DNA of 64,000 bases from a virus. The notes beneath the pieces are model-generated. The model ran no database searches and was not told the DNA's origin. It worked only from the letters and a program-made list of their open reading frames with translations. This document shows, one piece after another, positions 1 to 64,000 of the stretch (the first letter of the stretch is position 1; every line of letters starts with the position of its first letter). The stretch covers positions 89 through 64,088 of the IMG/VR virus record IMGVR_UViG_3300028024_000008, one strand, 5' to 3'. Position numbers and translations under genes: made by a program.

Positions 1-181
1 ACACGCTGGCCCACACGCTGGCCCGCACGCTGTCCCACACGCTGTCCCGCACGCTGTCCCCCACGCTGTCCCGCACGCTGTCCCCCACGCTGTCCCGCAC
101 GCTGTCCCCCACGCTGTCCCACACGCTGTCCCACACGCTGTCCCACACGCTGTCCCACACGCTGGCCCGCACGCTGTCCCC
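1..181. repeat. 12-bp coding tandem repeat (CACGCTG[T/G]CCC[A/G/C]), about 15 units, encoding (D/A)SV(W/R/G)
   Basis: Directly visible; no spacers; the same unit recurs at 63969-64000. Confidence 0.95.
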
Positions 182-433
182 TATTTCGACCTCGAGCTTC
201 TTGCGAAGCTCTCGGTCGGTCAGAATCGCGTACCAAATGGCACCAGCCATCGGTGAAGTGGAGAAAACTACCCTCGGCTTCGGCAGACCGGCAGCCTGAT
301 AGGCGAGCTCGATCGCTTTTTCCGCGCGGTCACGGTCCATCGGCTCTGTCGAAAGCCCGATCTGCGTCCATTTATCCGTCCAGACCGGCAAGAGTGCGGT
401 TTGTTCCGGTGTCAATTTTTCGATGCGAGCCAC
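1..433 (-). CDS. N-terminal part of DUF6745-like protein, running off the window start inside its repeat; absent from the ORF track
   Basis: GTG at 433 preceded by AGGAGG-like RBS. Manual translation MARIEKLTPEQTALLPVWTDKWTQIGLSTEPMDRDRAEKAIELAY...EIGDSVRASVWDSVWDSV..., open to base 1. The matching C-terminal part is at 63297-64000. Confidence 0.85.
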   Translation of the reverse strand, partial: MARIEKLTPEQTALLPVWTDKWTQIGLSTEPMDRDRAEKAIELAYQAAGLPKPRVVFSTSPMAGAIWYAILTDRELRKKLEVEIGDSVRASVWDSVWDSVWDSVWDSVGDSVRDSVGDSVRDSVGDSVRDSVWDSVRASVWASV

Positions 434-862: not shown

Positions 863-2101
863 TCACATCACGCCGATCGAGACGGCGTGTTTCTTCAGTT
901 TCTCGAAGCGCTCGATGATCGGCTTGCTGGCCGGGTCATCAGCCTTGCGGAGGACAACCGTGAATCCTTCGTTGAAGGATTCGATGTTGTCGGAGGTCCA
1001 GATATCGTGCGGTTCCGGAAAGGTCGCGACGATGTTCTCCATCTTGTCGAGCCAGCCGGTGATGCTCGGAATCGTCTCGACGGTCGTCGTCCGGGGATCA
1101 TAGAAATCGAGGCCCTTGCCGCCCTCCGGCTGCTTTCCTTCGGCGGGGCTTTGGTGCTTTGCCGGCTCCCCGCTGCCGTCCGTGCCGGCCTCGGCGTTTG
1201 CGCCCTGCGAATCCGGACGCGCTTTATTCTTGTTTTTGTCCTCGTCTGGCCGGCCGTCGCCCTGATCGGCATCGGTGGCATCCTTACGGAATTGCGCCTG
1301 AGTCGGACGGTCGGGCGCCTGAGTCGGTGTGATCACCTCGACGCCGCCACCAAGATCGATGGTATGGCCTTCCATCTCGTCATTCGTCATCCAATCGCCG
1401 ACCTCTTCGGGGAATGCCGCGCGCAAGGCAGAGGCCTCGGCGACCTTCTCCAGCATGAAACTCGGCTTGCGGGACCATATGTCATTGGGCAGATCGGTCT
1501 TGCCCTGCCGGCCATAGCTCTCGACGAATTTCACCCGGGGGCCCGGATAGGCGCGGGGCGTGCCGGCGCGGTCGAGCCGATAGAGCGTCACCTCGCACCA
1601 GTCCGGCGCGATGACCTCGACAGTCTTTTCCGGCTGCTTGACCTTGTTGCCGTTTTCCCAGACCTCAGGAGAGCCCTTGAAGATGAATTTCTTGTCCGGG
1701 CCCCAGGTCGGCTTATCCTTGCCGGCATAATCTGCCGTCCGAAACGCGGTGGTGCGCAGCTCGCCGATGCCGGGCCAGACGGTATCGACCATGCGGCGCA
1801 GCTGGTTGGAGTAGATCGGTACGATATGGACGACGCGCTTGAAGGGGTCGAGCTTTCGCGCCCGGCAATAGCTGAGGGCCAGGAGGATGCTGTCAACCGA
1901 TGTCGCCAGCGGGTAGCAAGCATCGATCAGCGCCCGCCACATGCCTTCATTGATCTCCGGAAACTGCCGCTGCACCTCTGGATGCCAGGGCAGGCGAGGG
2001 GCCGGCAATGGCGCCAGCTGGCCCTTGCTCTGCGGCTCCTGCGCGAAGCCCTGGTCCTGCTGCTGCGGGCGTTCCTTGGTCTGTGTGTTCTGCTTAGCCA
2101 T
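863..2101 (-). CDS. bet: Phage single-strand annealing recombinase (Bet/RecT-like)
   Basis: LSYCRARKLDPFKRVVHIVP, GIGELRTTAFRT and MLEKVAEASALRAAFPEE motifs. Confidence 0.85.
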   Translation of the reverse strand: MAKQNTQTKERPQQQDQGFAQEPQSKGQLAPLPAPRLPWHPEVQRQFPEINEGMWRALIDACYPLATSVDSILLALSYCRARKLDPFKRVVHIVPIYSNQLRRMVDTVWPGIGELRTTAFRTADYAGKDKPTWGPDKKFIFKGSPEVWENGNKVKQPEKTVEVIAPDWCEVTLYRLDRAGTPRAYPGPRVKFVESYGRQGKTDLPNDIWSRKPSFMLEKVAEASALRAAFPEEVGDWMTNDEMEGHTIDLGGGVEVITPTQAPDRPTQAQFRKDATDADQGDGRPDEDKNKNKARPDSQGANAEAGTDGSGEPAKHQSPAEGKQPEGGKGLDFYDPRTTTVETIPSITGWLDKMENIVATFPEPHDIWTSDNIESFNEGFTVVLRKADDPASKPIIERFEKLKKHAVSIGVM

Positions 2102-2145
2102 GCTGGCTTTCCCCGGATGATGGATGGTGAAATATCGAACTGGCG

Positions 2146-2493
2146 TTAGGTGGTGGCGTCGGTCCTACGGAAGCCGCTGCAGCTGCCGTCACCTTCGATC
2201 ACGGCGACAATCGGGCCCCACCCTTTGTGAGGGCCTTCGCTGAAGATGCCGCAGAAGCCATTAATGACGCCGAGAAAACCGACGACGGGCTGGTTATCAG
2301 CGAAGTTCGCTTCATAGGCCCCGGGAGCGCTCTTGAGATCGCCCCAGATACCAGCCTGCACAGTCGGATGACCGAGGACGTCAAGGTTGCATGGCACCCT
2401 GGCTGCGACCAGCTTGCCCATGCCGACTGGATCGAGCTTGGCCAAGGTGTCCAGGAAGGTGACGAGGTCGTCCGTTGCGGGATGAATTGCCAT
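2146..2493 (-). CDS. Hypothetical phage protein
   Basis: 115-aa ORF tightly packed in the operon. Confidence 0.65.
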   Translation of the reverse strand: MAIHPATDDLVTFLDTLAKLDPVGMGKLVAARVPCNLDVLGHPTVQAGIWGDLKSAPGAYEANFADNQPVVGFLGVINGFCGIFSEGPHKGWGPIVAVIEGDGSCSGFRRTDATT

Positions 2494-2504
2494 CGTGAGA
2501 CTCC

Positions 2505-3713
2505 TTAGCGGACGACCGTATTGACGTCCTCGAAGATGATGACGCCGGCCAGTTCGCGGCCATCGGCGTCGACGTAAGAGCGGATCGCGCGCTCCAGCGC
2601 CGCCTGGTCGAAATGCTGCGCCAGCTTCAGGATGTCACCGCGCAATGCGGCCATATCGGTGATCTGGAAATCCCAGTCGGTGCGGAGAGATGCCGTGGCG
2701 CCGTGATCGCCGCGGACCTGGCCGAATTCATGGGGCTTCGCCTCGATGACGCGGGTTTCCTTGACGATCGCCGCCGTCTCGCGCTCAGAAGCCTGCACGA
2801 CGCGGGCGTCGGCCTTTTCGACCTTCTTGGCGCCGGCTTCTTCGGCCAATTTGATCCGGGCGGCATTCCGTTCTTCCTGCTCCAGGCGCTGGCGCTCCAG
2901 CCGGGTCTGTTCCTCGGCCGCCGCCAGCCGCTCGCGCTCAGCCTTCAGCCGATCGGCCTCGGCAGCTTTGCGCTGGCGCTCGGCAGCTTCCTCGGCTTCC
3001 TTGGCCGCCTTGACCGCGGCATCGCGCTTGCGGCCCGCCTCGGCGGCCTCCTCGATCGCTTTGCGGCGGTCTTCCTCGGCCCTGGCCCGGGCCTGCTCAG
3101 CCTCCTGCCGCTGGCGCTCGGCCGCTGCCGCCCGCTCCTTGGCCTCACGTTCCAATGCCTCGGCCTGGCGCTGGCGCTCCTCGGTCTCGCGGCGCTGCGC
3201 ATCGGCCTTTTCACGGGCTTCACGGGCGATGCGCTCGGCTTCCTCGCGCGCCGCCGCCGCTTTGGCTTCCTCTTCCTTGCGCAGCCGCTCGGCCTCTTCG
3301 CGCTTTTTACGGGCCTCTTCCTCGGCGAGTTTGCGCTTGCGGTCGGCCTCCTTCTCCTGAAAGACCTGCAGGCGGCTCTCGACCGTCTCCTTGTCCTTTT
3401 TCAAAAGATTGATCGGCTTCATGAAAAGGTTCTGCACGGCGGCGGCGGCGTTATCATGCGGCGCCTTCTCCGCGGCGCGGGTGGTGTTGAGATCCTTGAC
3501 GCCGTAACCGATCTGCTTGGCGAAATCGGCCGCCTTGCGGGCCGTCTCCTCGTCATCGATCGTCTCCGGCACCGCGCCCATGCCGGCATGCAGATCATTC
3601 GCCCGCTTGAACAGGAAATCGTGCTTTTCCTGCAGGTTGTCGACGATCTGCTGTTCAGCGGAAACGACGGCAATATTGGTGAGATCCGGGATCTCGGCGA
3701 CGGCAACGCTCAT
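2505..3713 (-). CDS. Coiled-coil protein next to the recombinase
   Basis: Long E/A/R/K-rich helical middle with globular ends; stop/start overlap with the upstream gene. Confidence 0.8.
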   Translation of the reverse strand: MSVAVAEIPDLTNIAVVSAEQQIVDNLQEKHDFLFKRANDLHAGMGAVPETIDDEETARKAADFAKQIGYGVKDLNTTRAAEKAPHDNAAAAVQNLFMKPINLLKKDKETVESRLQVFQEKEADRKRKLAEEEARKKREEAERLRKEEEAKAAAAREEAERIAREAREKADAQRRETEERQRQAEALEREAKERAAAAERQRQEAEQARARAEEDRRKAIEEAAEAGRKRDAAVKAAKEAEEAAERQRKAAEADRLKAERERLAAAEEQTRLERQRLEQEERNAARIKLAEEAGAKKVEKADARVVQASERETAAIVKETRVIEAKPHEFGQVRGDHGATASLRTDWDFQITDMAALRGDILKLAQHFDQAALERAIRSYVDADGRELAGVIIFEDVNTVVR

Positions 3714-4075
3714 TTACGTGAACCTCCAAAGATAGGCGGCATCTGCCGCAGGTCGACGGGTTTGCGGGGATTGGCTTCCGGCTCGTCGGGGGCATGCTTG
3801 GCAGCCCATTGCCGCAACGCGCAGCGCCAATTGTATTCGGCCTCCGGGGTCGGCTCGCCGGCACACCAGGGCCAGACCTTCTCGATCGGCACCTCTTCAT
3901 CGCCGAGCAGGGCATGAAAGGACGGCGACCGATCCAGCAGCTCGCCGGTGTCAGGGTCGCGCGACGGCCGGAACTCGATCTTCACCGGGACCCACGGGCC
4001 GCGCTTTATAAGGCGCATCTTGTAGAGCCCTGGCGTCGGCGTGCTGATATCGTGGGAATCGCGGAGATCAAGCAT
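3710..4075 (-). CDS. Hypothetical phage protein (PGLYKMRLIKRGPWVPVKI)
   Basis: Part of ORF 3710..4186; ATG 4075 overlaps the upstream stop. Confidence 0.65.
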   Translation of the reverse strand: MLDLRDSHDISTPTPGLYKMRLIKRGPWVPVKIEFRPSRDPDTGELLDRSPSFHALLGDEEVPIEKVWPWCAGEPTPEAEYNWRCALRQWAAKHAPDEPEANPRKPVDLRQMPPIFGGSRK

Positions 4076-4253
4076 TCCGTTTGCGCTTCCCAGAACGTTC
4101 GGCGGCGCGGCGGCTGGCCTCGGTCTCGGCGATGACCTGTTCGACACCTTCGCGGTAGATGCGGAAGTTGCCAAGATGTTGGTCACACCAGGCCATTTGC
4201 TTCGGGCCGAGACCGCGCGGCTTGCCGGCCGGCTTCAGGGCGACGGCTACCAT
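4068..4253 (-). CDS. Small hypothetical protein
   Basis: 3' part of ORF 4068..4385; tiles between neighbours. Confidence 0.45.
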   Translation of the reverse strand: MVAVALKPAGKPRGLGPKQMAWCDQHLGNFRIYREGVEQVIAETEASRRAAERSGKRKRNA

Positions 4254-4369
4254 GCCAGCACCCATGACCAGGCGATATAGACGCCGAGACCGGCGGCCAG
4301 GATGACGAATTGCGCAAGGCCGCCCCAGGTCAGGGCATGGGCTACTGCGTTGCGTGTATCGCGTTTCAA
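4247..4369 (-). CDS. 40-aa single-TM peptide (TTG start)
   Basis: Manual translation LKRDTRNAVAHALTWGGLAQFVILAAGLGVYIAWSWVLAW; TTGA overlap with the upstream stop; GGAG RBS. Confidence 0.5.
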   Translation of the reverse strand: MKRDTRNAVAHALTWGGLAQFVILAAGLGVYIAWSWVLAW

Positions 4370-4590
4370 GCTGCGTCTCCATCATTAGGGGCTGGACTGA
4401 AACGAATCGTCTCGCCTCGAAGGGCGAGGGCGTGCCGGCTGTTCTGCCGCAGGCGAAAGCTCGGGCCGATATCGACCAGGCGCCAGAGCTTCTCCTTGTG
4501 CTGGCGATGCGCGGTAAGCTCGACGATCGGCTGTGCCAGCTCGGAGCTGGCCTGCCAATAGGCGCGCGTCTTTTCCTCGAGATAGCTCAT
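4366..4590 (-). CDS. Hypothetical protein
   Basis: ATGA coupling on the upstream side. Confidence 0.55.
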   Translation of the reverse strand: MSYLEEKTRAYWQASSELAQPIVELTAHRQHKEKLWRLVDIGPSFRLRQNSRHALALRGETIRFSPAPNDGDAA

Positions 4591-52122: not shown

Positions 52123-52320
52123 AAGGTGCGACAATGGGCTGAGGAAAAGGTGCGGAATGCTGGGACATTCGCCGACTGTCGCACTCTCGCTAAGCGGCTG
52201 ATTTTCTTCAATTGTGGCATGCCGTCCCTGGGCACCATCGCATTTCCAAGCATTTGAAAACGCTTCACTTTGTGCCGGCTTTTGTCGCACCTTTCGTGAA
52301 CTGCGCTTCAGGTGCGACAA
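52123..52320. other. attP: core CCGTCCCTGGGCACCA (52222-52237, a tRNA 3' end) flanked by integrase arm-type repeats AGGTGCGACAA
   Basis: Repeats at 52123-52134, 52147-52157, 52177-52185 (inverted), 52282-52293 (inverted) and 52310-52320; adjacent to the integrase 3' end. Confidence 0.8.
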
Positions 52321-53416
52321 TCTCGTTCTCTTTTGGTGCCTCGCGGCTGAGATATTTCATGCCGCTGGCGGCCAGCTTATTGCGGTTCGCCTTGCGGGTA
52401 TAGACCGCTGCTTGCTTCGGGCTTTCCCAGCCATAGATCGCCATCAGCTGGTATTCGGTAGCGCCGTTGTTCGCCGCGATCGTGGCGCCCGCCTTGCGCA
52501 ATCCATGCGCCGAGCAGCCGATCAGTCCCGCAAGGCGGCATTGCCTGCCGAACCAGTTGCCGAAGCCACCATGTGAGTAGGCCTTGCCGTGGTCGGTGAC
52601 GAGATAGGTCAGATGATTATTCGGCGTCGCGTCGAGCACTTGCTGCAGCTCAGGCAGCACCGGAATGAAGCGCTCCTTCAGCACCCGCTTGCGACCCTTC
52701 CATTCTCTGAAATGGAGGACGGGACCGCAATATTCTTCCATCTCGATATGTTTTGCCATTTGCCGCCCGAGCTTGATGACGTCTGACCGCCGCACGCCGG
52801 TAAAGAGCAATAGAGCCATCGCCAGGCGCGGCTTGGTTCCGATCGGCCAGCGCTTCTCGAACTGTGCGATCTCCTCAAGAGTCCAGGTATGGAACCCCTC
52901 GGGATTGTTGCTTTCCAGATAAGGCACGTCGGCCGCCGGGTTGGCCTCGGCGTATTCCATGGCGATTGCCCATTTGAAGACCTGCCGCAGCGCCTTGATG
53001 AAGCTGTTCGCCGCCTCTGGCCGGCTCGACATGGCGTCACGGTCCTGGCGTAGGTTCCGGGCCCGGAGTGGCTTGAAGGGCAGGTGGCCGTCTCGCTGGC
53101 TGAATTTCTCCAGGATCAGCTTCCGGGCATGCTGTGTCGCCGGCTCGAGGGTCTTGAATTCGGCGCTCTTGTAATACTCGGTCAGCAGCCACGCCAGGGT
53201 GCCACTGGCGGGCGCCAGGGCTTTCTTGGGCAATCCAAGGCCATTGGCGGCCCGGAACTCCAGCGCCTGCAGGCCGTCCTTGTAGCTCTGAAGGAAGGCG
53301 GTTGTGCCTGGCGCGCCCTTGACCCGGATCCGCTTGCCATGGCGCCTGACATACCATTTCTCGTTCCCGTGCCGATCGGTCTCATGGGAGAGATAGGGAA
53401 GGTCGATCTGGGTCAT
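52265..53416 (-). CDS. int: Tyrosine integrase
   Basis: FTGVRRSD, SAHGLRKAGAT and YGWES...AVY catalytic residues. Confidence 0.95.
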   Translation of the reverse strand: MTQIDLPYLSHETDRHGNEKWYVRRHGKRIRVKGAPGTTAFLQSYKDGLQALEFRAANGLGLPKKALAPASGTLAWLLTEYYKSAEFKTLEPATQHARKLILEKFSQRDGHLPFKPLRARNLRQDRDAMSSRPEAANSFIKALRQVFKWAIAMEYAEANPAADVPYLESNNPEGFHTWTLEEIAQFEKRWPIGTKPRLAMALLLFTGVRRSDVIKLGRQMAKHIEMEEYCGPVLHFREWKGRKRVLKERFIPVLPELQQVLDATPNNHLTYLVTDHGKAYSHGGFGNWFGRQCRLAGLIGCSAHGLRKAGATIAANNGATEYQLMAIYGWESPKQAAVYTRKANRNKLAASGMKYLSREAPKENEIVAPEAQFTKGATKAGTK

Positions 53417-53664
53417 CGCTTGTCCCAAGGGTTTTCCTCCTCGGAAGTTGGCAACGCGGAAAAGGCGGCGTCAAGGGCCAGCCGATCCCATATGACGCGA
53501 GTGTTAACCTTTTTGGCCTCCGGCATCCGGCCGTCTTTAACCATTTCATCGAAGAGGCTGGGCGAGACGCCGATATAGGCCGCCGCCTCGACGCGGGAAA
53601 GACCGCGGGGCGGGCAGGAGGCCGGCAGGATGTCAGCGCGGCGGCGCGGCGCCTCGACGTTCAC
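53413..53664 (-). CDS. xis: Excisionase (AlpA/MerR-like HTH)
   Basis: RGLSRVEAAAYIGVSPSLFDEMVKDGRMP; coupled to int. Confidence 0.85.
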   Translation of the reverse strand: MNVEAPRRRADILPASCPPRGLSRVEAAAYIGVSPSLFDEMVKDGRMPEAKKVNTRVIWDRLALDAAFSALPTSEEENPWDKR

Positions 53665-57884: not shown

Positions 57885-58163
57885 TCATCCGATGCCTCCT
57901 GCTCGCTCAATCGCCTGTATGCGGATACGCTCCCAGGCATGGTCCGCAATCATCTGGCACCGCTCCAAAGTTTCACCTTGAACGCCACGCTTGATGAGGC
58001 GATTGGCGCGGCTGTACCTTTTCCGATGATGAGCATCGCCGAGCCGCCAATGCTTCCAGCAGATGATGCGGGTCCCTTCCTCGTACTTCGCCTTTGGAGC
58101 GGTACGGCGGCAGAACGGCACCTCGCAGGCGATGCGGTCGGGCTTGGTCATGGAAACAGCCAA
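57885..58163 (-). CDS. Hypothetical Cys/His protein
   Basis: CEVPFC and ICWKHW. Confidence 0.6.
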   Translation of the reverse strand: MAVSMTKPDRIACEVPFCRRTAPKAKYEEGTRIICWKHWRLGDAHHRKRYSRANRLIKRGVQGETLERCQMIADHAWERIRIQAIERAGGIG

Positions 58164-59851
58164 TCTGCTGCTTTGACCGTCCCGCGCCCGCTGGGCTCGA
58201 TCAACCCATAGGCGGCAACGGCCGACATATAGACCCCGGCCGTGCTGGCAGTCGGCGACAGCCCAACACTTTCAGCAACGGCATCCCGGCGGATATCCTT
58301 CGGCCAGGCACGATAGATGACATCGAAGACACGCTGCTCCTGAGCGCCTAAAAGACCGCGCGCCATTTGATAGAGATCTTCGCGCGTCGTCGCCGTCGGC
58401 ATGTTTGCCGCCTTCAGCCCTGCCGGCGTCAGCGCGATCTTGCCGGGCGATGTTTCGAGCAGTCCTGCTTTGACCAGCTGCGAGACGTAGACGCCGAAGG
58501 TGGAAGCCTTCGGACTATAGCCGGCAACGACACAGGCCCTATCACGGTCGGCTGGATCCTGGCCGATCTTGCGCCACCAGGCGACTGCGTCGAGGACGCG
58601 CTGCTGTGCCGGCGTGATGCCTTCGCTGGGAGGATTGGAGCGGACGACGGGACTCGAACCCGCGACACTCGGCTTGGAAGGCCGATGCTCTACCGACTGA
58701 GCTGCGTCCGCTTTGTGAGTTGGCACCTTCATCGGCGATGGTGCGCCGCGACGCTCTCCTGGCACCACATGGTTGCCATCATAGTAATCGAGATGCCCAC
58801 GGACCCGCTTCAGGAGTTCGTCCCACCCGCCAACATATCCCTCGTTATAAGCGCCAAGGCGCATGGCATCGATCTCGGCCTGAGATATGGATGGCACCGA
58901 TACCTGTGCCGGCGCAGCCTTCAACTGCTTCTCCAGCTCGGCAACGCGTCGCCGCAATGCGACCGGATCATCTGCCTCAGCCGCCTTCACGGCATCACCG
59001 ATCAATGCCCGCAGCTTCTCAGGATCGACCTGAGCGGTCTTGACCTCATGCCGATGATCGTCATCGGTCGGGGTGGCGCTGTTGTCATAGGTCGTGATGC
59101 GCGGGAACTTGACGAGATCGGCGATATTGGCCTCCCCGGATATCACCCAGCCTTCACCGGTCTTGAGGCCGGCCAGCGAGCGGGAGACCTTCTCGGCAAC
59201 GTCCTTGGCGACGTTTCCCCGCAGCCATTCCTTGACCGGCGTCTGATCGGCCGGCAGCGTCAGCCGGTGCGCGATAAGCGTCTCGCAGCTGCCGAGCACG
59301 GCATTGTGCAGCGATTGGGTCCGCTGCGTCACCACCACCAGGCGAATGCCCTTCGACCGGCCGGCAGTTGCCAGCTTCTTCGCGAAGTGGATGGTCAGGT
59401 TCTCGCCGCCGAAGCCCGCCCGTTCTTTCGGGGCGAATTCGTGCGCCTCCTCGATGACCAGGTAGAGGATACCGCGCATCTTCCGCAACAGGGCCGGTGC
59501 GAATTCCGTGAAGAAGGTCTGCAGGCCGCCCGGCTTGAAATCGGCCATGTCGATGATACTCAGCGGCAGGTCACCACCGGCCACCAGCTCGCCGATCGGC
59601 TTGCCCGCCGTCTCCTGGATCTGCACATGGCCGTGCGGGCCGCCCAGGATCTGGAATGGCAGGCCTGGGCGCTTGCCGTCGGCGCTTGACGTCAGGCCCC
59701 ACCAGTCGGACTTGATCGGGTCCAGAATGCACACCCGGGCGCCCTGGGCCACGACATGCTCGACCAGCAGCTTGGCGGTCGAGGTCTTGCCCGAGCCAGT
59801 CTTCCCGACCACAGCAGTATGCTGGCCGATGATCTCCTTGAAGATCTTCAT
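58148..59851 (-). CDS. HerA/FtsK-superfamily (DUF87-like) ATPase with C-terminal winged-helix-like domains
   Basis: Walker A VGKTGSGKT, Walker B LVIEEAHEFAP, GRSKGIRLVVVTQR. Confidence 0.88.
   Translation of the reverse strand: MKIFKEIIGQHTAVVGKTGSGKTSTAKLLVEHVVAQGARVCILDPIKSDWWGLTSSADGKRPGLPFQILGGPHGHVQIQETAGKPIGELVAGGDLPLSIIDMADFKPGGLQTFFTEFAPALLRKMRGILYLVIEEAHEFAPKERAGFGGENLTIHFAKKLATAGRSKGIRLVVVTQRTQSLHNAVLGSCETLIAHRLTLPADQTPVKEWLRGNVAKDVAEKVSRSLAGLKTGEGWVISGEANIADLVKFPRITTYDNSATPTDDDHRHEVKTAQVDPEKLRALIGDAVKAAEADDPVALRRRVAELEKQLKAAPAQVSVPSISQAEIDAMRLGAYNEGYVGGWDELLKRVRGHLDYYDGNHVVPGERRGAPSPMKVPTHKADAAQSVEHRPSKPSVAGSSPVVRSNPPSEGITPAQQRVLDAVAWWRKIGQDPADRDRACVVAGYSPKASTFGVYVSQLVKAGLLETSPGKIALTPAGLKAANMPTATTREDLYQMARGLLGAQEQRVFDVIYRAWPKDIRRDAVAESVGLSPTASTAGVYMSAVAAYGLIEPSGRGTVKAADWLFP
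58636..58711 (-). tRNA. tRNA-Gly(UCC), 76 nt with encoded CCA, nested inside the ATPase CDS
   Basis: GCGGACG CA GCTC AGTCGGTA GAGC A TCGGC CTTCCAA GCCGA GTGTC GCGGG TTCGAGT CCCGT CGTCCGC T CCA: all four stems pair (one G-U), discriminator U73; the one noted deviation is C at position 8. Confidence 0.88.
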
Positions 59852-60150
59852 CCGTTCCCCTTTGTCGGCATGTACCGTGCCTCGAATTCCTTGATGAAGC
59901 CGTCCAGCTCGGCCTGGATCAGCGCCAGGCGGTTGAGATCGCCATCGGTGGCGTCGTCGCCATCATCGAGCGTGCGCAACAGCGTCGCGAAGACATGCTG
60001 GGCGCCAGCAAAGAAGGCGGTCCGCATCTCTGCGAGCTGGATGGCGGGCGCGTCGGTCGGGATCGTCATCACGCGCAGGCTGTGCCAGCCGGCCTCAATC
60101 AGCTTGCCGCTATTGGCAAGCTCGCGTTCCAGTTCTTCAATCTGGCTCAT
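59848..60150 (-). CDS. Hypothetical conserved phage protein
   Basis: QLAEMRTAFFAGAQHVF. Confidence 0.65.
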   Translation of the reverse strand: MSQIEELERELANSGKLIEAGWHSLRVMTIPTDAPAIQLAEMRTAFFAGAQHVFATLLRTLDDGDDATDGDLNRLALIQAELDGFIKEFEARYMPTKGNG

Positions 60151-60545
60151 GCAGCCTCCTGTAAGCCGGCTCGTTCCCGGCGATCTTCCAGCCGCGCGAG
60201 TGTCTCCAATCGCACAGCAATCGACTGATGCAGGCGGCCAAGACGACGGCCGATCTCCATATTGTTGACGCCCTGCTTGGCGAGAGCGAGAAGCTCGGCA
60301 TCTTCCTCCGGACTGAACCGGCGGATCGTCCGGTCCCGGCATTTTATGACGGGCTTGCCCCGATAGGCCGGGGCGACAATCGCGGGCGGTCTCCCCTCGA
60401 CCTCGATCACATAATGCCGGCAGGCATATTCGACTGTCGAATGAGAGCGGCCGATCTTCCGACCGATCCGCTCATAGGACCAGCCTCGGCCGCGCAGCTC
60501 TTCGATGGCGGCGATCTCTGCTTCGCTCAGTCGTTTGCGTGTCAT
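60147..60545 (-). CDS. Tandem HTH (Myb/GcrA-like) protein
   Basis: GWSYERIGRKIGRSHSTV and FSPEEDAELL...EIGRRLGR. Confidence 0.7.
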   Translation of the reverse strand: MTRKRLSEAEIAAIEELRGRGWSYERIGRKIGRSHSTVEYACRHYVIEVEGRPPAIVAPAYRGKPVIKCRDRTIRRFSPEEDAELLALAKQGVNNMEIGRRLGRLHQSIAVRLETLARLEDRRERAGLQEAA

Positions 60546-60859
60546 GCCCGCTTCTCCCGCTGAGCCATTCTGACCGCCTGGCGGCCGATCTCGGTAATGA
60601 ACCACTCGGCCGAATAGTCGCTGTCATTGACCCAGGTAAAGAGTCCGATGCCGGCCACACTGCGCCGAGCTTCACGCCGCACCAGGCCGCGCCAGTAAAG
60701 AGCACGGATGACCCGCATCGGGTACAGATGGCCGATAGGATTTCGCTTCGGCCGCCGGCCGGTGCGCGGGTCTGCCGAGCTGAGGCAGAGCAGCATCGCG
60801 TCGCTAAGCTGCAGGTCGACCTTGCCGCCGGCGGGGAAGGGGATGATTTGGGCTGTCAT
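60542..60859 (-). CDS. Hypothetical protein
   Basis: ATGA-coupled. Confidence 0.55.
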   Translation of the reverse strand: MTAQIIPFPAGGKVDLQLSDAMLLCLSSADPRTGRRPKRNPIGHLYPMRVIRALYWRGLVRREARRSVAGIGLFTWVNDSDYSAEWFITEIGRQAVRMAQREKRA

Positions 60860-61290
60860 TGCTTTGCCATCCTGTCATAGAGAACGACATTCGCCGTCGC
60901 AGCGAGATTCATGCACGCTGCAGTGGGGATGGAGATCAAGTCCCGGCATCGTTCGGTTAAATGTCGCGGCAAGGAGCCGTCCTCCGGCCCGAAAATATAG
61001 AAGGCCCGTTCCGGGTGACGATATCGAAAGAGCGAGCGTGCTGAAGGATCGATCTCGACGGCAACCGGAACGCAATCGTGTGGCAATGCGCCAAGCAGAT
61101 CGGCGACATGAAGTGTCGGTATATGCCGCCGGGCATCGGTTGTGTCCGAGGCCTGCCTGCGGTATCGGTGTCCCTGGATGACGATCAGGGATGCGCTATA
61201 GCAAAAGGCCGCGCGCATCACGCCACCGACATTGTGGTCAGTCTTCGGATTGAAAAGGCCGATTGCGGCGAAACCACGGCCACGCATCAT
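60856..61290 (-). CDS. SPOUT (TrmH/TrmL-like) RNA 2'-O-methyltransferase
   Basis: PKTDHNVGGVMRAA, FGPEDGSL and ISIP...MNLAATANVVLYDR. Confidence 0.85.
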   Translation of the reverse strand: MMRGRGFAAIGLFNPKTDHNVGGVMRAAFCYSASLIVIQGHRYRRQASDTTDARRHIPTLHVADLLGALPHDCVPVAVEIDPSARSLFRYRHPERAFYIFGPEDGSLPRHLTERCRDLISIPTAACMNLAATANVVLYDRMAKQ

Positions 61291-63296: not shown

Positions 63297-64000
63297 TCAG
63301 GTCTCGATCTGCGGATAATACTGCTTGCCGGTCAGCCCGAATGTGCTGGCGATGGCGTTACGTGCCGTAAGCTTCTGCGGATCGCCGAATTGCTGATCTG
63401 CGAGCAGGGGCCGGCATTCCGGATGGACGCGGAGCGTGTAACGCTTCCAGCTGCCATCTGGCTCAGGCGTCGAATTGATGACATGGACCATGACGAGCGG
63501 CTCATCATCGCGGACATTCTTGCGATAGAGCGTGCCGACGCCTTCTTCGTGATCGAGGATCTCGGCACTGCCGGCGAGTAGGTATTTGTCGAAGCCGAAG
63601 CGCTCCATCATGACGCGCCGGACCTCGGCGTTCTGCTCGGCATCGATCAGGTCGACCGTGATGCGCTCCGGATGCAGGATGATCCAGTCCGGAACGCGGA
63701 CGCCGTGCCAGGAATAGACGCCCCAGCCATCACGATATTCGATCGCGGCGCGGTCTTCGCAATGGAGCCGGCCTTGATCATCGCGCGCCAGGTGGCGCGG
63801 CCGATCGGTTACGAGACAGACTTTCTCCATCGGCCAGAACCAGCCGGCCGACTGCGTCAGCTCGATCAGGCCGACAAGACGCTCGGTCTGCTGGACCAGG
63901 GCGCAATTCTGGCGGAAAAAGTCATAGAAACCGGTCCAGTTGCCATCGTGTTGGCCGTAACCGGCCGCCCGCACGCTGGCCCCCACGCTGTCCCACACGC
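63297..64000 (-). CDS. C-terminal part of the DUF6745-like protein (continuation of 433->1)
   Basis: SVWDSVGASVRAAGYGQHDGNW...GRLHCEDRAAIEYRDGWGVYSWHGV...NAEVRRVMMERFG. Confidence 0.85.
   Translation of the reverse strand, partial: VWDSVGASVRAAGYGQHDGNWTGFYDFFRQNCALVQQTERLVGLIELTQSAGWFWPMEKVCLVTDRPRHLARDDQGRLHCEDRAAIEYRDGWGVYSWHGVRVPDWIILHPERITVDLIDAEQNAEVRRVMMERFGFDKYLLAGSAEILDHEEGVGTLYRKNVRDDEPLVMVHVINSTPEPDGSWKRYTLRVHPECRPLLADQQFGDPQKLTARNAIASTFGLTGKQYYPQIET

Follow-up and report, generated by a model that had tools for sequence, protein, structure and literature searches.

A transfer RNA (tRNA) and a protein appear to be encoded by the same nucleotides, on the same strand, in the genome of a temperate phage. 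The sequence analysed here (the window) comprises 64,000 nucleotides (nt) of the IMG/VR record IMGVR_UViG_3300028024_000008, and all positions are window coordinates unless a locus is named. Within the early-region gene of a HerA/FtsK-type ATPase lies a complete 76-nt tRNA-Gly(UCC), which is read in frame by the ribosome as part of the linker between two protein domains. We propose, with a probability of roughly 0.68, that it functions as a phage tRNA, is maintained within a protein-coding gene and is matured from the early messenger RNA (mRNA), a reading drawn from comparison of the window with its relatives.

The nested tRNA

tRNAs were called with ARAGORN and with the Rfam model RF00005 (gathering score 29 bits). 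ARAGORN reports a single tRNA in the 64-kb window, a tRNA-Gly with anticodon tcc at 58636-58711 on the minus strand, as the sequence-only reading of this DNA had claimed. The Rfam match scores 68.9 bits (E 6.3e-13) and covers model positions 1-71 of 71.

58636-58711, minus strand: tRNA-Gly(UCC), 76 nt, with encoded CCA (ARAGORN, Rfam, fold; codon phase 0)
58676-58678, minus strand: anticodon UCC (tRNA positions 34-36), the serine codon TCC for the ribosome (sequence, ARAGORN)
58704, minus strand: tRNA position 8, C for the near-universal U (sequence, alignment)

The cloverleaf is the minimum-energy fold of the 76-nt RNA (-31.5 kcal/mol, 50% of the ensemble), and it is kept when the tRNA is folded within a 146-nt piece of the mRNA. 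Its stems have 7, 4, 5 and 5 pairs, and U33 stands in an anticodon loop of 7 nt. The stems had been described as fully paired; all 21 of 21 pairs are indeed standard, with the qualification that one of them, G49-U65, is a wobble. A14, G18 G19, G53 T54 T55 C56, A58 and C61 are all present, and U8 alone is replaced, by C, a change found also in the nested tRNA-Trp of the relative L073. Glycyl-tRNA synthetase recognises the identity set G1-C72, C2-G71, G3-C70, U73, C35 and C36, which is complete in the window tRNA and in each of the seven other nested Gly tRNAs described below. Upstream of base 1 lies an A-rich leader, ACTCACAAA. The details listed in the sequence-only reading (the three acceptor pairs, U73, the UCC anticodon, CCA, C8 and the leader) can thus all be read from the sequence.

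The tRNA also sits in an uninterrupted reading frame, again as first described: base 1 is the first base of codon 381 in the open reading frame (ORF) 58148-59851, and the tRNA spans codons 381-405 plus the first base of codon 406. The in-frame peptide of this stretch is ADAAQSVEHRPSKPSVAGSSPVVRS.

The gene that contains the tRNA

58148-59851, minus strand: P0001, 567 amino acids (aa), HerA/FtsK-type ATPase with two predicted winged helices, early region of a temperate phage (ORF list, translation, homologues)
59087-59851, minus strand: ATPase core, aa 1-255 (PF01935 8.4e-10; HerA chains in PDB to 2.7e-14; predicted local distance difference test score, pLDDT, 76-93)
59783-59806, minus strand: Walker A motif GKTGSGKT, within the ATPase core
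58775-59023, minus strand: helical, coiled-coil-like region, aa 277-359 (AlphaFold, alignment, identity profiles)
58631-58798, minus strand: low-confidence, probably disordered linker, aa 352-407, which holds the tRNA-encoded peptide (pLDDT <50)
58151-58624, minus strand: two predicted winged-helix modules, aa 410-567 (model pLDDT 91, fold matches, selection on the coding sequence)

The start of the protein matches PF01935 (DUF87/HerA P-loop) at 39.6 bits against a cut-off of 23.2, and the family profile matches HerA chains in PDB at 2.7e-14. An assignment to HerA helicase proper was rejected: with the NCBIfam HerA equivalog models the protein reaches 47-56 bits, where 800-970 would be required, and only ~15 residues precede the Walker A motif, where the N-terminal HAS barrel would be expected. 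By these matches, it has the ATPase core of HerA and is not a HerA orthologue. The second half of the helical region falls in the unalignable part of the family. The AlphaFold model has pLDDT ~30 over aa 361-400, a segment that includes tRNA-encoded residues, while the C-terminal domain modelled alone has pLDDT 91 and folds into two helix-helix-helix-strand-strand modules. The top Foldseek matches of this domain are all winged-helix proteins (MarR, SelB, ScpB, MntR), at a weak level (E 0.012 or weaker, template-modelling score 0.3-0.46), and its Pfam matches are weak as well. The layout first described from the sequence, a HerA-like ATPase followed by a helical coiled coil, a linker and C-terminal winged helices, is therefore borne out by PF01935, the PDB matches and AlphaFold, with weak fold matches for the winged helices; the placing of the tRNA in the inter-domain linker agrees with the low pLDDT there. 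In this model, the 25 tRNA-encoded residues are a passenger piece of the linker.

A protein search returned more than a thousand relatives, of which the best 120 are ~570 aa long and cover 99-100% of the query; these are mostly metagenomic, with named examples in Bradyrhizobium and Rhodopseudomonas. An exhaustive search at E<=1e-30 defines a family of 3145 cluster representatives. The family alignment shows conservation in the ATPase core and over the last ~160 residues, with an unalignable middle. Among cultured phages in GenBank, only one distant match was found, to the N-terminal part (33.8%), and no close homologue.

We considered whether the ORF joins two adjacent genes whose frame is open by accident. 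This was ruled out by three observations. First, full-length homologues that lack the tRNA match this layout along 99-100% of their length, so that the ORF is genuine and continuous, as first proposed, and not split. Second, the C-terminal domain is under purifying selection, with a ratio of nonsynonymous to synonymous substitution rates (dN/dS) of 0.04-0.13 at dS 0.5-1.0 between tRNA-bearing genes. Third, the first in-frame ATG, GTG or TTG after the tRNA lies well inside the C-terminal domain, past its first module. Since the domain is selected and has no start codon near its beginning, ribosomes must, on this evidence, read through the tRNA, and the domain must be translated only in this way.

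The 200-250 nt of linker DNA (window ~58775-58950) are only 28-50% identical between relatives even where the flanks are 85-95% identical, and the linker is equally unalignable in tRNA-less relatives. This variability looks like replacement through recombination rather than drift.

Nested tRNAs in related genes

Candidate homologues were picked by linker peptides resembling a translated tRNA; their DNA was then fetched, and every one contained a tRNA. Including the window, 15 distinct loci carry a tRNA at the same linker position, all with DNA evidence. They represent six anticodons and score 59.7-76.7 bits against RF00005 (L numbers denote loci of relatives, and numbers joined by an equals sign are the same locus).

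Window: Gly-UCC, 68.9 bits
L002 (= L054 = L087): Gly-UCC, 76.7 bits
L003: Arg-CCG, 61.8 bits
L004: Arg-UCU, 61.9 bits
L005 (= L154): Gly-UCC, 60.9 bits
L008: Gln-UUG, 59.7 bits
L068: Arg-CCG, 71.6 bits
L069: Gly-UCC, 62.0 bits
L070: Arg-CCG, 71.4 bits
L071: Lys-UUU, 69.8 bits
L072: Gly-UCC, 61.5 bits
L073: Trp-CCA, 62.1 bits
L086: Gly-UCC, 66.4 bits
L166: Gly-UCC, 69.4 bits
L217: Gly-UCC, 63.3 bits

The same arrangement at 14 further distinct loci indicates that the nesting is more than chance. A further nested tRNA, in P0170, is known from its peptide alone. All 15 of the 15 tRNAs lie on the sense strand, 10-35 codons before the C-terminal domain, and exactly one long frame is open through each. 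Fourteen are 76 nt long, and in 13 of the 13 whose phase was computed, base 1 is the first base of a codon; the fourteenth, that of L217, lies in a called gene translating to its protein and is outside the computed set. The Gln tRNA of L008 has 74 nt and lies in another codon phase, pointing to at least a second, independent insertion.

Three tblastn scans, which are independent of ORF calls, revealed no split or out-of-frame form among ~143 loci, though no dedicated search for shorter homologues was made; every tRNA found inside the gene in these scans is of the in-frame sense kind. tRNA carriers account for 12 of the 121 closest proteins and for 2 of ~150 representatives at 50% identity.

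One candidate for a second kind of nested tRNA, at L101 5510-5582, was rejected: it is a truncated tRNA-Met without a D arm (29.6 bits) under a 496-codon junk ORF of the high-GC type, probably a prophage attachment (att) scar, and it contrasts with the genuine nested tRNAs. Separately, in L005/L154 the ORF 1616-4402 is open for 928 codons through the tRNA, and the first part of its ATPase region is unrelated to the window's; the long frame is either an N-terminal fusion or an upstream frame open by chance. In L068 (1700-1720) and L071 (3008-3028), base 1 is immediately preceded by an AT-rich leader, TTGACTTATAA, although the rest of the gene is GC-rich. The leader is common to an Arg-CCG and a Lys-UUU tRNA and may act as a signal for processing or reflect shared ancestry.

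Selection on the RNA

Between the window and L002, identity is 85-90% along the ATPase region, falls in the linker to 28-50%, as low as for unrelated sequence, rises to 93% over the tRNA and drops to ~45% in the C-terminal domain, where the two genes have different domain types. Specifically, 71 of the 76 tRNA bases are identical, with 5 differences, while dS is 0.66 in the flanking ATPase domain.

The homologues also bear out the suggestion that compensatory stem changes should be sought in them. Across 11 nested tRNAs, 97% of stem positions pair and both sides have changed in 11 of 21 pairs; in controls with partners shifted by 1-3 columns, 37-51% pair. Because tRNAs of different identity might be separate captures, we counted again within eight tRNAs closely related to the Gly backbone, where 95.8% of positions pair and double changes occur in 6 of 21 pairs. 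Among these, G29-C41 is replaced by U-A in L086, and in L217 C11-G24 is replaced by U-A and U27-A43 by C-G; the L217 gene keeps the same acceptor stem, though its protein is only 47% identical to that of the window. Likewise, the acceptor stems of L068 (Arg) and L071 (Lys) differ by a compensatory change of C2-G71 to U2-A71.

By the general rules of tRNA identity, which assign identity nucleotides to amino acids, the nested tRNAs are also internally consistent. U73 occurs together with G1-C72, C2-G71 and G3-C70 in all eight Gly tRNAs, and A20 in all four Arg tRNAs; G73 is found in the Trp tRNA and, combined with U1-A72, in the Gln tRNA. Identity nucleotides in these sequences thus follow the anticodon.

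Orientation points in the same direction. Counted on 14 of the nested tRNAs, an antisense tRNA leaves 1.86 open frames and a sense tRNA 1.93. The uniform sense orientation, though antisense would be equally open, points to a need for transcription as RNA; the independent events behind the uniformity may be as few as two. As judged from these comparisons, both the reading frame and the cloverleaf are shown to be held by selection.

A neutral relic, that is, a tRNA that landed in a tolerant linker and persists since frame-preserving decay is slow, would be in keeping with C8 in the window, with the mismatched tRNAs of L004 and L005 that lack a cloverleaf fold (see below), and with the minority status of the trait in the family. 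We regard it as improbable, in view of the mere 5 differences in 76 tRNA bases where dS is 0.66 and the neighbouring linker is scrambled, the compensatory double changes within a close lineage, and the persistence of the same backbone, at 63.3 bits, in L217.

Origin of the tRNA slot

Host tRNAs were represented by 80 distinct tRNAs of one Bradyrhizobium genome, which may not be the host of the window phage. The window tRNA is at most 83% identical to any of them and 91-93% identical to the nested tRNAs of diverged phage relatives, which rules out, for the window, a recent copy of a host tRNA and with it the suggestion of a recently captured relic. Found in a viral record (IMG/VR) and distinct from the Bradyrhizobium set, it can be classed as phage-encoded. 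The Bradyrhizobium tRNA-Gly(UCC) has 74 nt and is 79% identical to it, and no nested tRNA is more than 83% identical to any of the 80.

Several nested tRNAs resemble nested tRNAs with a different anticodon more closely than the host tRNA with the same one. In L004, for example, the Arg-UCU tRNA shows 87% identity to nested Gly tRNAs but 68% to the host Arg-UCU; relative to the Gly tRNAs it has a changed anticodon, has gained A20 and has lost the glycine element G3-C70. This suggests that some of the nested Arg, Lys, Trp and Gln tRNAs derive from a Gly tRNA through changes of the anticodon and identity nucleotides.

On a tree of the ATPase domain, tRNA-bearing genes are scattered: at least 8 state changes are required, and well-supported branches force at least 4 of them; the window belongs to a well-supported group of five, all five of which carry the tRNA. 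L069 and L070 are sister genes with ~90% identity in either flank, but their linkers are unrelated and hold a Gly and an Arg tRNA, respectively. The scattered tree, this swap and the shared codon phase together point to an old insertion, or a few of them, after which phages exchanged the linker plus tRNA and tRNA identity changed in place. Many fresh insertions would not fit the tree, the sister genes or the phase data.

Modular exchange raises the question of whether the tRNA serves simply as a DNA recombination patch, a short homology at a module boundary for swapping linkers and C-terminal domains. The N-terminal part of the window gene matches L002 (85-90% of nt), while its C-terminal domain matches L005 and L003 (~80%) and not L002 (~45%); similarity resumes ~10-25 nt past the 3' end of the tRNA; and L069 and L070 differ in linker and tRNA between ~90% identical flanks. 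Homology, however, needs no compensatory changes, identity nucleotides, CCA end or fixed strand, tRNAs of different type share too little sequence to recombine, and the linker is just as variable in tRNA-less relatives. This explanation is therefore an unlikely one.

A broader reading, which we put forward tentatively and consider less probable than a working tRNA as such, is that the linker is a heritable, dual-coding tRNA slot in which tRNAs change amino-acid identity in place. Phages would thereby tune the tRNA they supply, perhaps against tRNA-cutting defences of the host, and excision would in addition set the time at which the ATPase is shut off. With the linker peptide free to vary, RNA selection alone could shape every tRNA base in such a slot.

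The attachment site lies elsewhere

Tyrosine integrases commonly target tRNA genes, and both integration-dependent immunity and tRNA-dependent lysogeny are documented in temperate mycobacteriophages (PMC4557955, PMC10865867). The nested tRNA might accordingly be the phage attachment site (attP) or a secondary att core within the gene, or might replace a host tRNA destroyed by integration. The integrated relatives make this highly improbable. In the prophage L002/L054, the gene and its tRNA-Gly are intact, and the integrase adjoins a complete tRNA-Val(GAC), followed by host genes. In a second integrated prophage, L166, the gene and its tRNA-Gly are likewise intact, and a 3' remnant of tRNA-Val lies beside the integrase, again with host genes after it. 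The att site is thus the tRNA-Val by the integrase, which rules out an attP inside the gene and disposes of the earlier suggestion of a secondary recombination site. A second copy of the nested tRNA was not found in the L002/L054 host genome (the L166 host was outside the search). In the window, the integrase (52265-53428) lies 5 kb away, and no tRNA fragment adjoins it. tRNA-dependent lysogeny was rejected on similar grounds: the bacterial attachment site (attB) is tRNA-Val(GAC), which is complete next to the L002 integrase, and the nested tRNA is of another type, Gly(UCC).

Proposed function and mechanism

A consensus scan of 58000-60500 found no promoter or terminator for the tRNA save a weak promoter-like site at 60411-60440; with an alphaproteobacterial host, such a negative carries little weight. 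As no promoter or terminator of its own was detected, the tRNA is taken to come from the early-operon transcript. We propose that the early mRNA made in lytic growth carries the tRNA sequence, that host ribonuclease (RNase) P would cut at G1, and that 3' nucleases would trim back to the encoded CCA. Processing would take place on transcripts or decay fragments that are free of ribosomes. The mature tRNA would be charged with glycine and would add to or replace the host's scarce reader of GGA and GGG. The linker would act as a permissive slot, which in relatives holds Arg, Lys, Trp and Gln tRNAs.

Two motives for carrying such tRNAs can be named. Supply of readers for rare A-ending codons fits Gly-UCC, Arg-UCU, Lys-UUU and Gln-UUG and does not fit Arg-CCG or Trp; replacement of host tRNAs cut by defence nucleases (PMC10264068) is equally possible.

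Several observations weigh against a working tRNA. The C8 of the window tRNA could weaken the tertiary fold, and covariation across tRNA identities could partly reflect separate captures of working tRNAs. The L004 tRNA has two A-C mismatches in the acceptor stem, that of L005 has mismatches in the D and anticodon stems, and the minimum-energy fold of neither is a cloverleaf. These two tRNAs look as if they are decaying, indicating that tRNA function can be lost while the gene lives on. Furthermore, only about 2-10% of family members carry a tRNA, which is thus dispensable for the gene. Finally, codon use provides no clear motive: in the phage genes alone, GGA and GGG make up 6% and 11% of glycine codons, early and late genes do not differ to an extent worth noting, and the Arg-CCG and Trp tRNAs of relatives do not read rare codons.

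Under the proposed mechanism, each processing event would destroy one message. As each cut ends one message, the yield of tRNA and that of full-length protein would compete, which need not amount to a regulated switch. In a true processing switch, the RNase P cut would set the balance between full-length ATPase and a non-stop truncated product, or would time early-gene shut-off, and the tRNA would be a by-product or second output. From the known action of RNase P, cutting and translation should be mutually exclusive on any one transcript; moreover, the sense orientation is universal, and the tRNA always lies just before the putative DNA-binding domain, so that a cut would part the ATPase from its targeting part. 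Any shape recognised by RNase P would suffice for this purpose, however, and neither the anticodon-specific identity nucleotides (A20 in Arg; U73 with G1-C2-G3 in Gly) nor the encoded CCA would be needed; about 90% or more of homologues work without a tRNA; and no regulatory partner is seen. A switch is a possible and legitimate reading of the architecture, but it is not needed to explain the data and leaves the identity nucleotides unexplained, and we hold it to be doubtful.

Phage context and neighbouring genes

The system is found in prophages of soil Alphaproteobacteria, with Bradyrhizobium strains as example lysogens. At the right end of the window, a DUF6745 gene is cut (63297-64000) and appears to be continued in an open-ended ORF at 2-433 (minus strand), and gene order matches L002 across the junction of the window ends. 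The continuation and the shared gene order suggest that the record is a complete, circularly permuted genome. The window itself looks like an excised phage genome of this kind, although the source classes the record as linear and ~75% complete.

One kb upstream of the ATPase gene lies a gene for a SpoU-family 2'-O-methyltransferase of 144 aa (60856-61290, minus strand; PF00588 2.3e-16), which is weakly similar to TrmL, a methylase of the tRNA wobble base. A link between this enzyme and the nested tRNA is not supported, since its homologues also lie beside tRNA-less family members (L016, L099, L144).

Two further RNA loci were noted near tRNA-less relatives. In L053/L089, a transfer-messenger RNA (tmRNA) gene with the tag peptide ANDNTFAGADRVAA lies ~1.8 kb downstream of the homologue, near the prophage early region, and is probably the attachment site of that prophage. 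In Bradyrhizobium embrapense, L197 (G003 contig C1:34858-46100) is a dense array of ~35 same-strand tRNA genes spanning 11 kb; the tRNA-less copy of the ATPase family in this genome lies ~90 kb away.

Significance and comparison with known systems

The new part of the system is its dual-coding architecture; the known part is the phage tRNA. No phage or bacterial gene with a complete, in-frame nested tRNA was found described in the full-text literature, a coverage that leaves out most subscription journals, so that a precedent may exist. Annotation treats tRNA and protein genes as mutually exclusive, and pipelines usually drop or truncate ORFs that overlap a tRNA, by which such cases would be hidden. 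If the proposal is right, the gene illustrates clearly how the same sequence can act both as protein code and as structural RNA. It raises the mechanistic question of how RNase P and the ribosome share one transcript, and the six anticodons on related backbones offer a natural series for the study of tRNA identity change.

For the tRNA genes of T4-like phages and mycobacteriophages, two explanations have been offered, compensation for codon use and evasion of the host's anticodon nucleases (PMC10264068). The nested tRNAs resemble such phage tRNAs in being phage-borne, diverged from those of the host and presumably expressed in infection, and most of them read A-ending codons, which are rare in a GC-rich host. 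Known phage tRNAs lie between genes, often in clusters, whereas here a whole tRNA lies inside a sense protein frame and is translated.

In mycobacteriophage BPs, attP lies inside the repressor gene 33 and provides integration-dependent immunity (PMC4557955). Both systems have tRNA-gene-related sequence in a phage ORF, read in frame. In BPs, however, this sequence is only an att core that serves recombination, and the protein is shortened on integration. The tRNA described here is complete and distinct from the att site, and its gene is whole in the prophage. In tRNA-dependent lysogeny, a tRNA of the temperate phage replaces a host tRNA destroyed by integration (PMC10865867). The window likewise represents a temperate phage with a single tRNA gene, but in its relative L002 the tRNA at attB is left complete and differs in type from the nested one.

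Two other arrangements are instructive, one for the release of the tRNA and one for its position. Co-transcripts of tRNA and mRNA are cut by RNase P and RNase E, as in the thrU-tyrU-glyT-thrT-tufB operon of E. coli, and mitochondrial transcripts follow a similar 'tRNA punctuation'. The release of a tRNA from a longer coding transcript is what we propose here, with the difference that in those transcripts the tRNA lies beside or between ORFs, whereas here its release would cut the reading frame in two. In phage lambda, the replication origin, with its iterons, lies in the linker-coding part of the replication gene O. There, too, the DNA encoding the flexible linker of an early gene has a second, non-protein function. 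In lambda this is a DNA element, whereas in the window no repeat families that would mark iterons or a replication origin were found in or near the linker, and the evidence points to an RNA.

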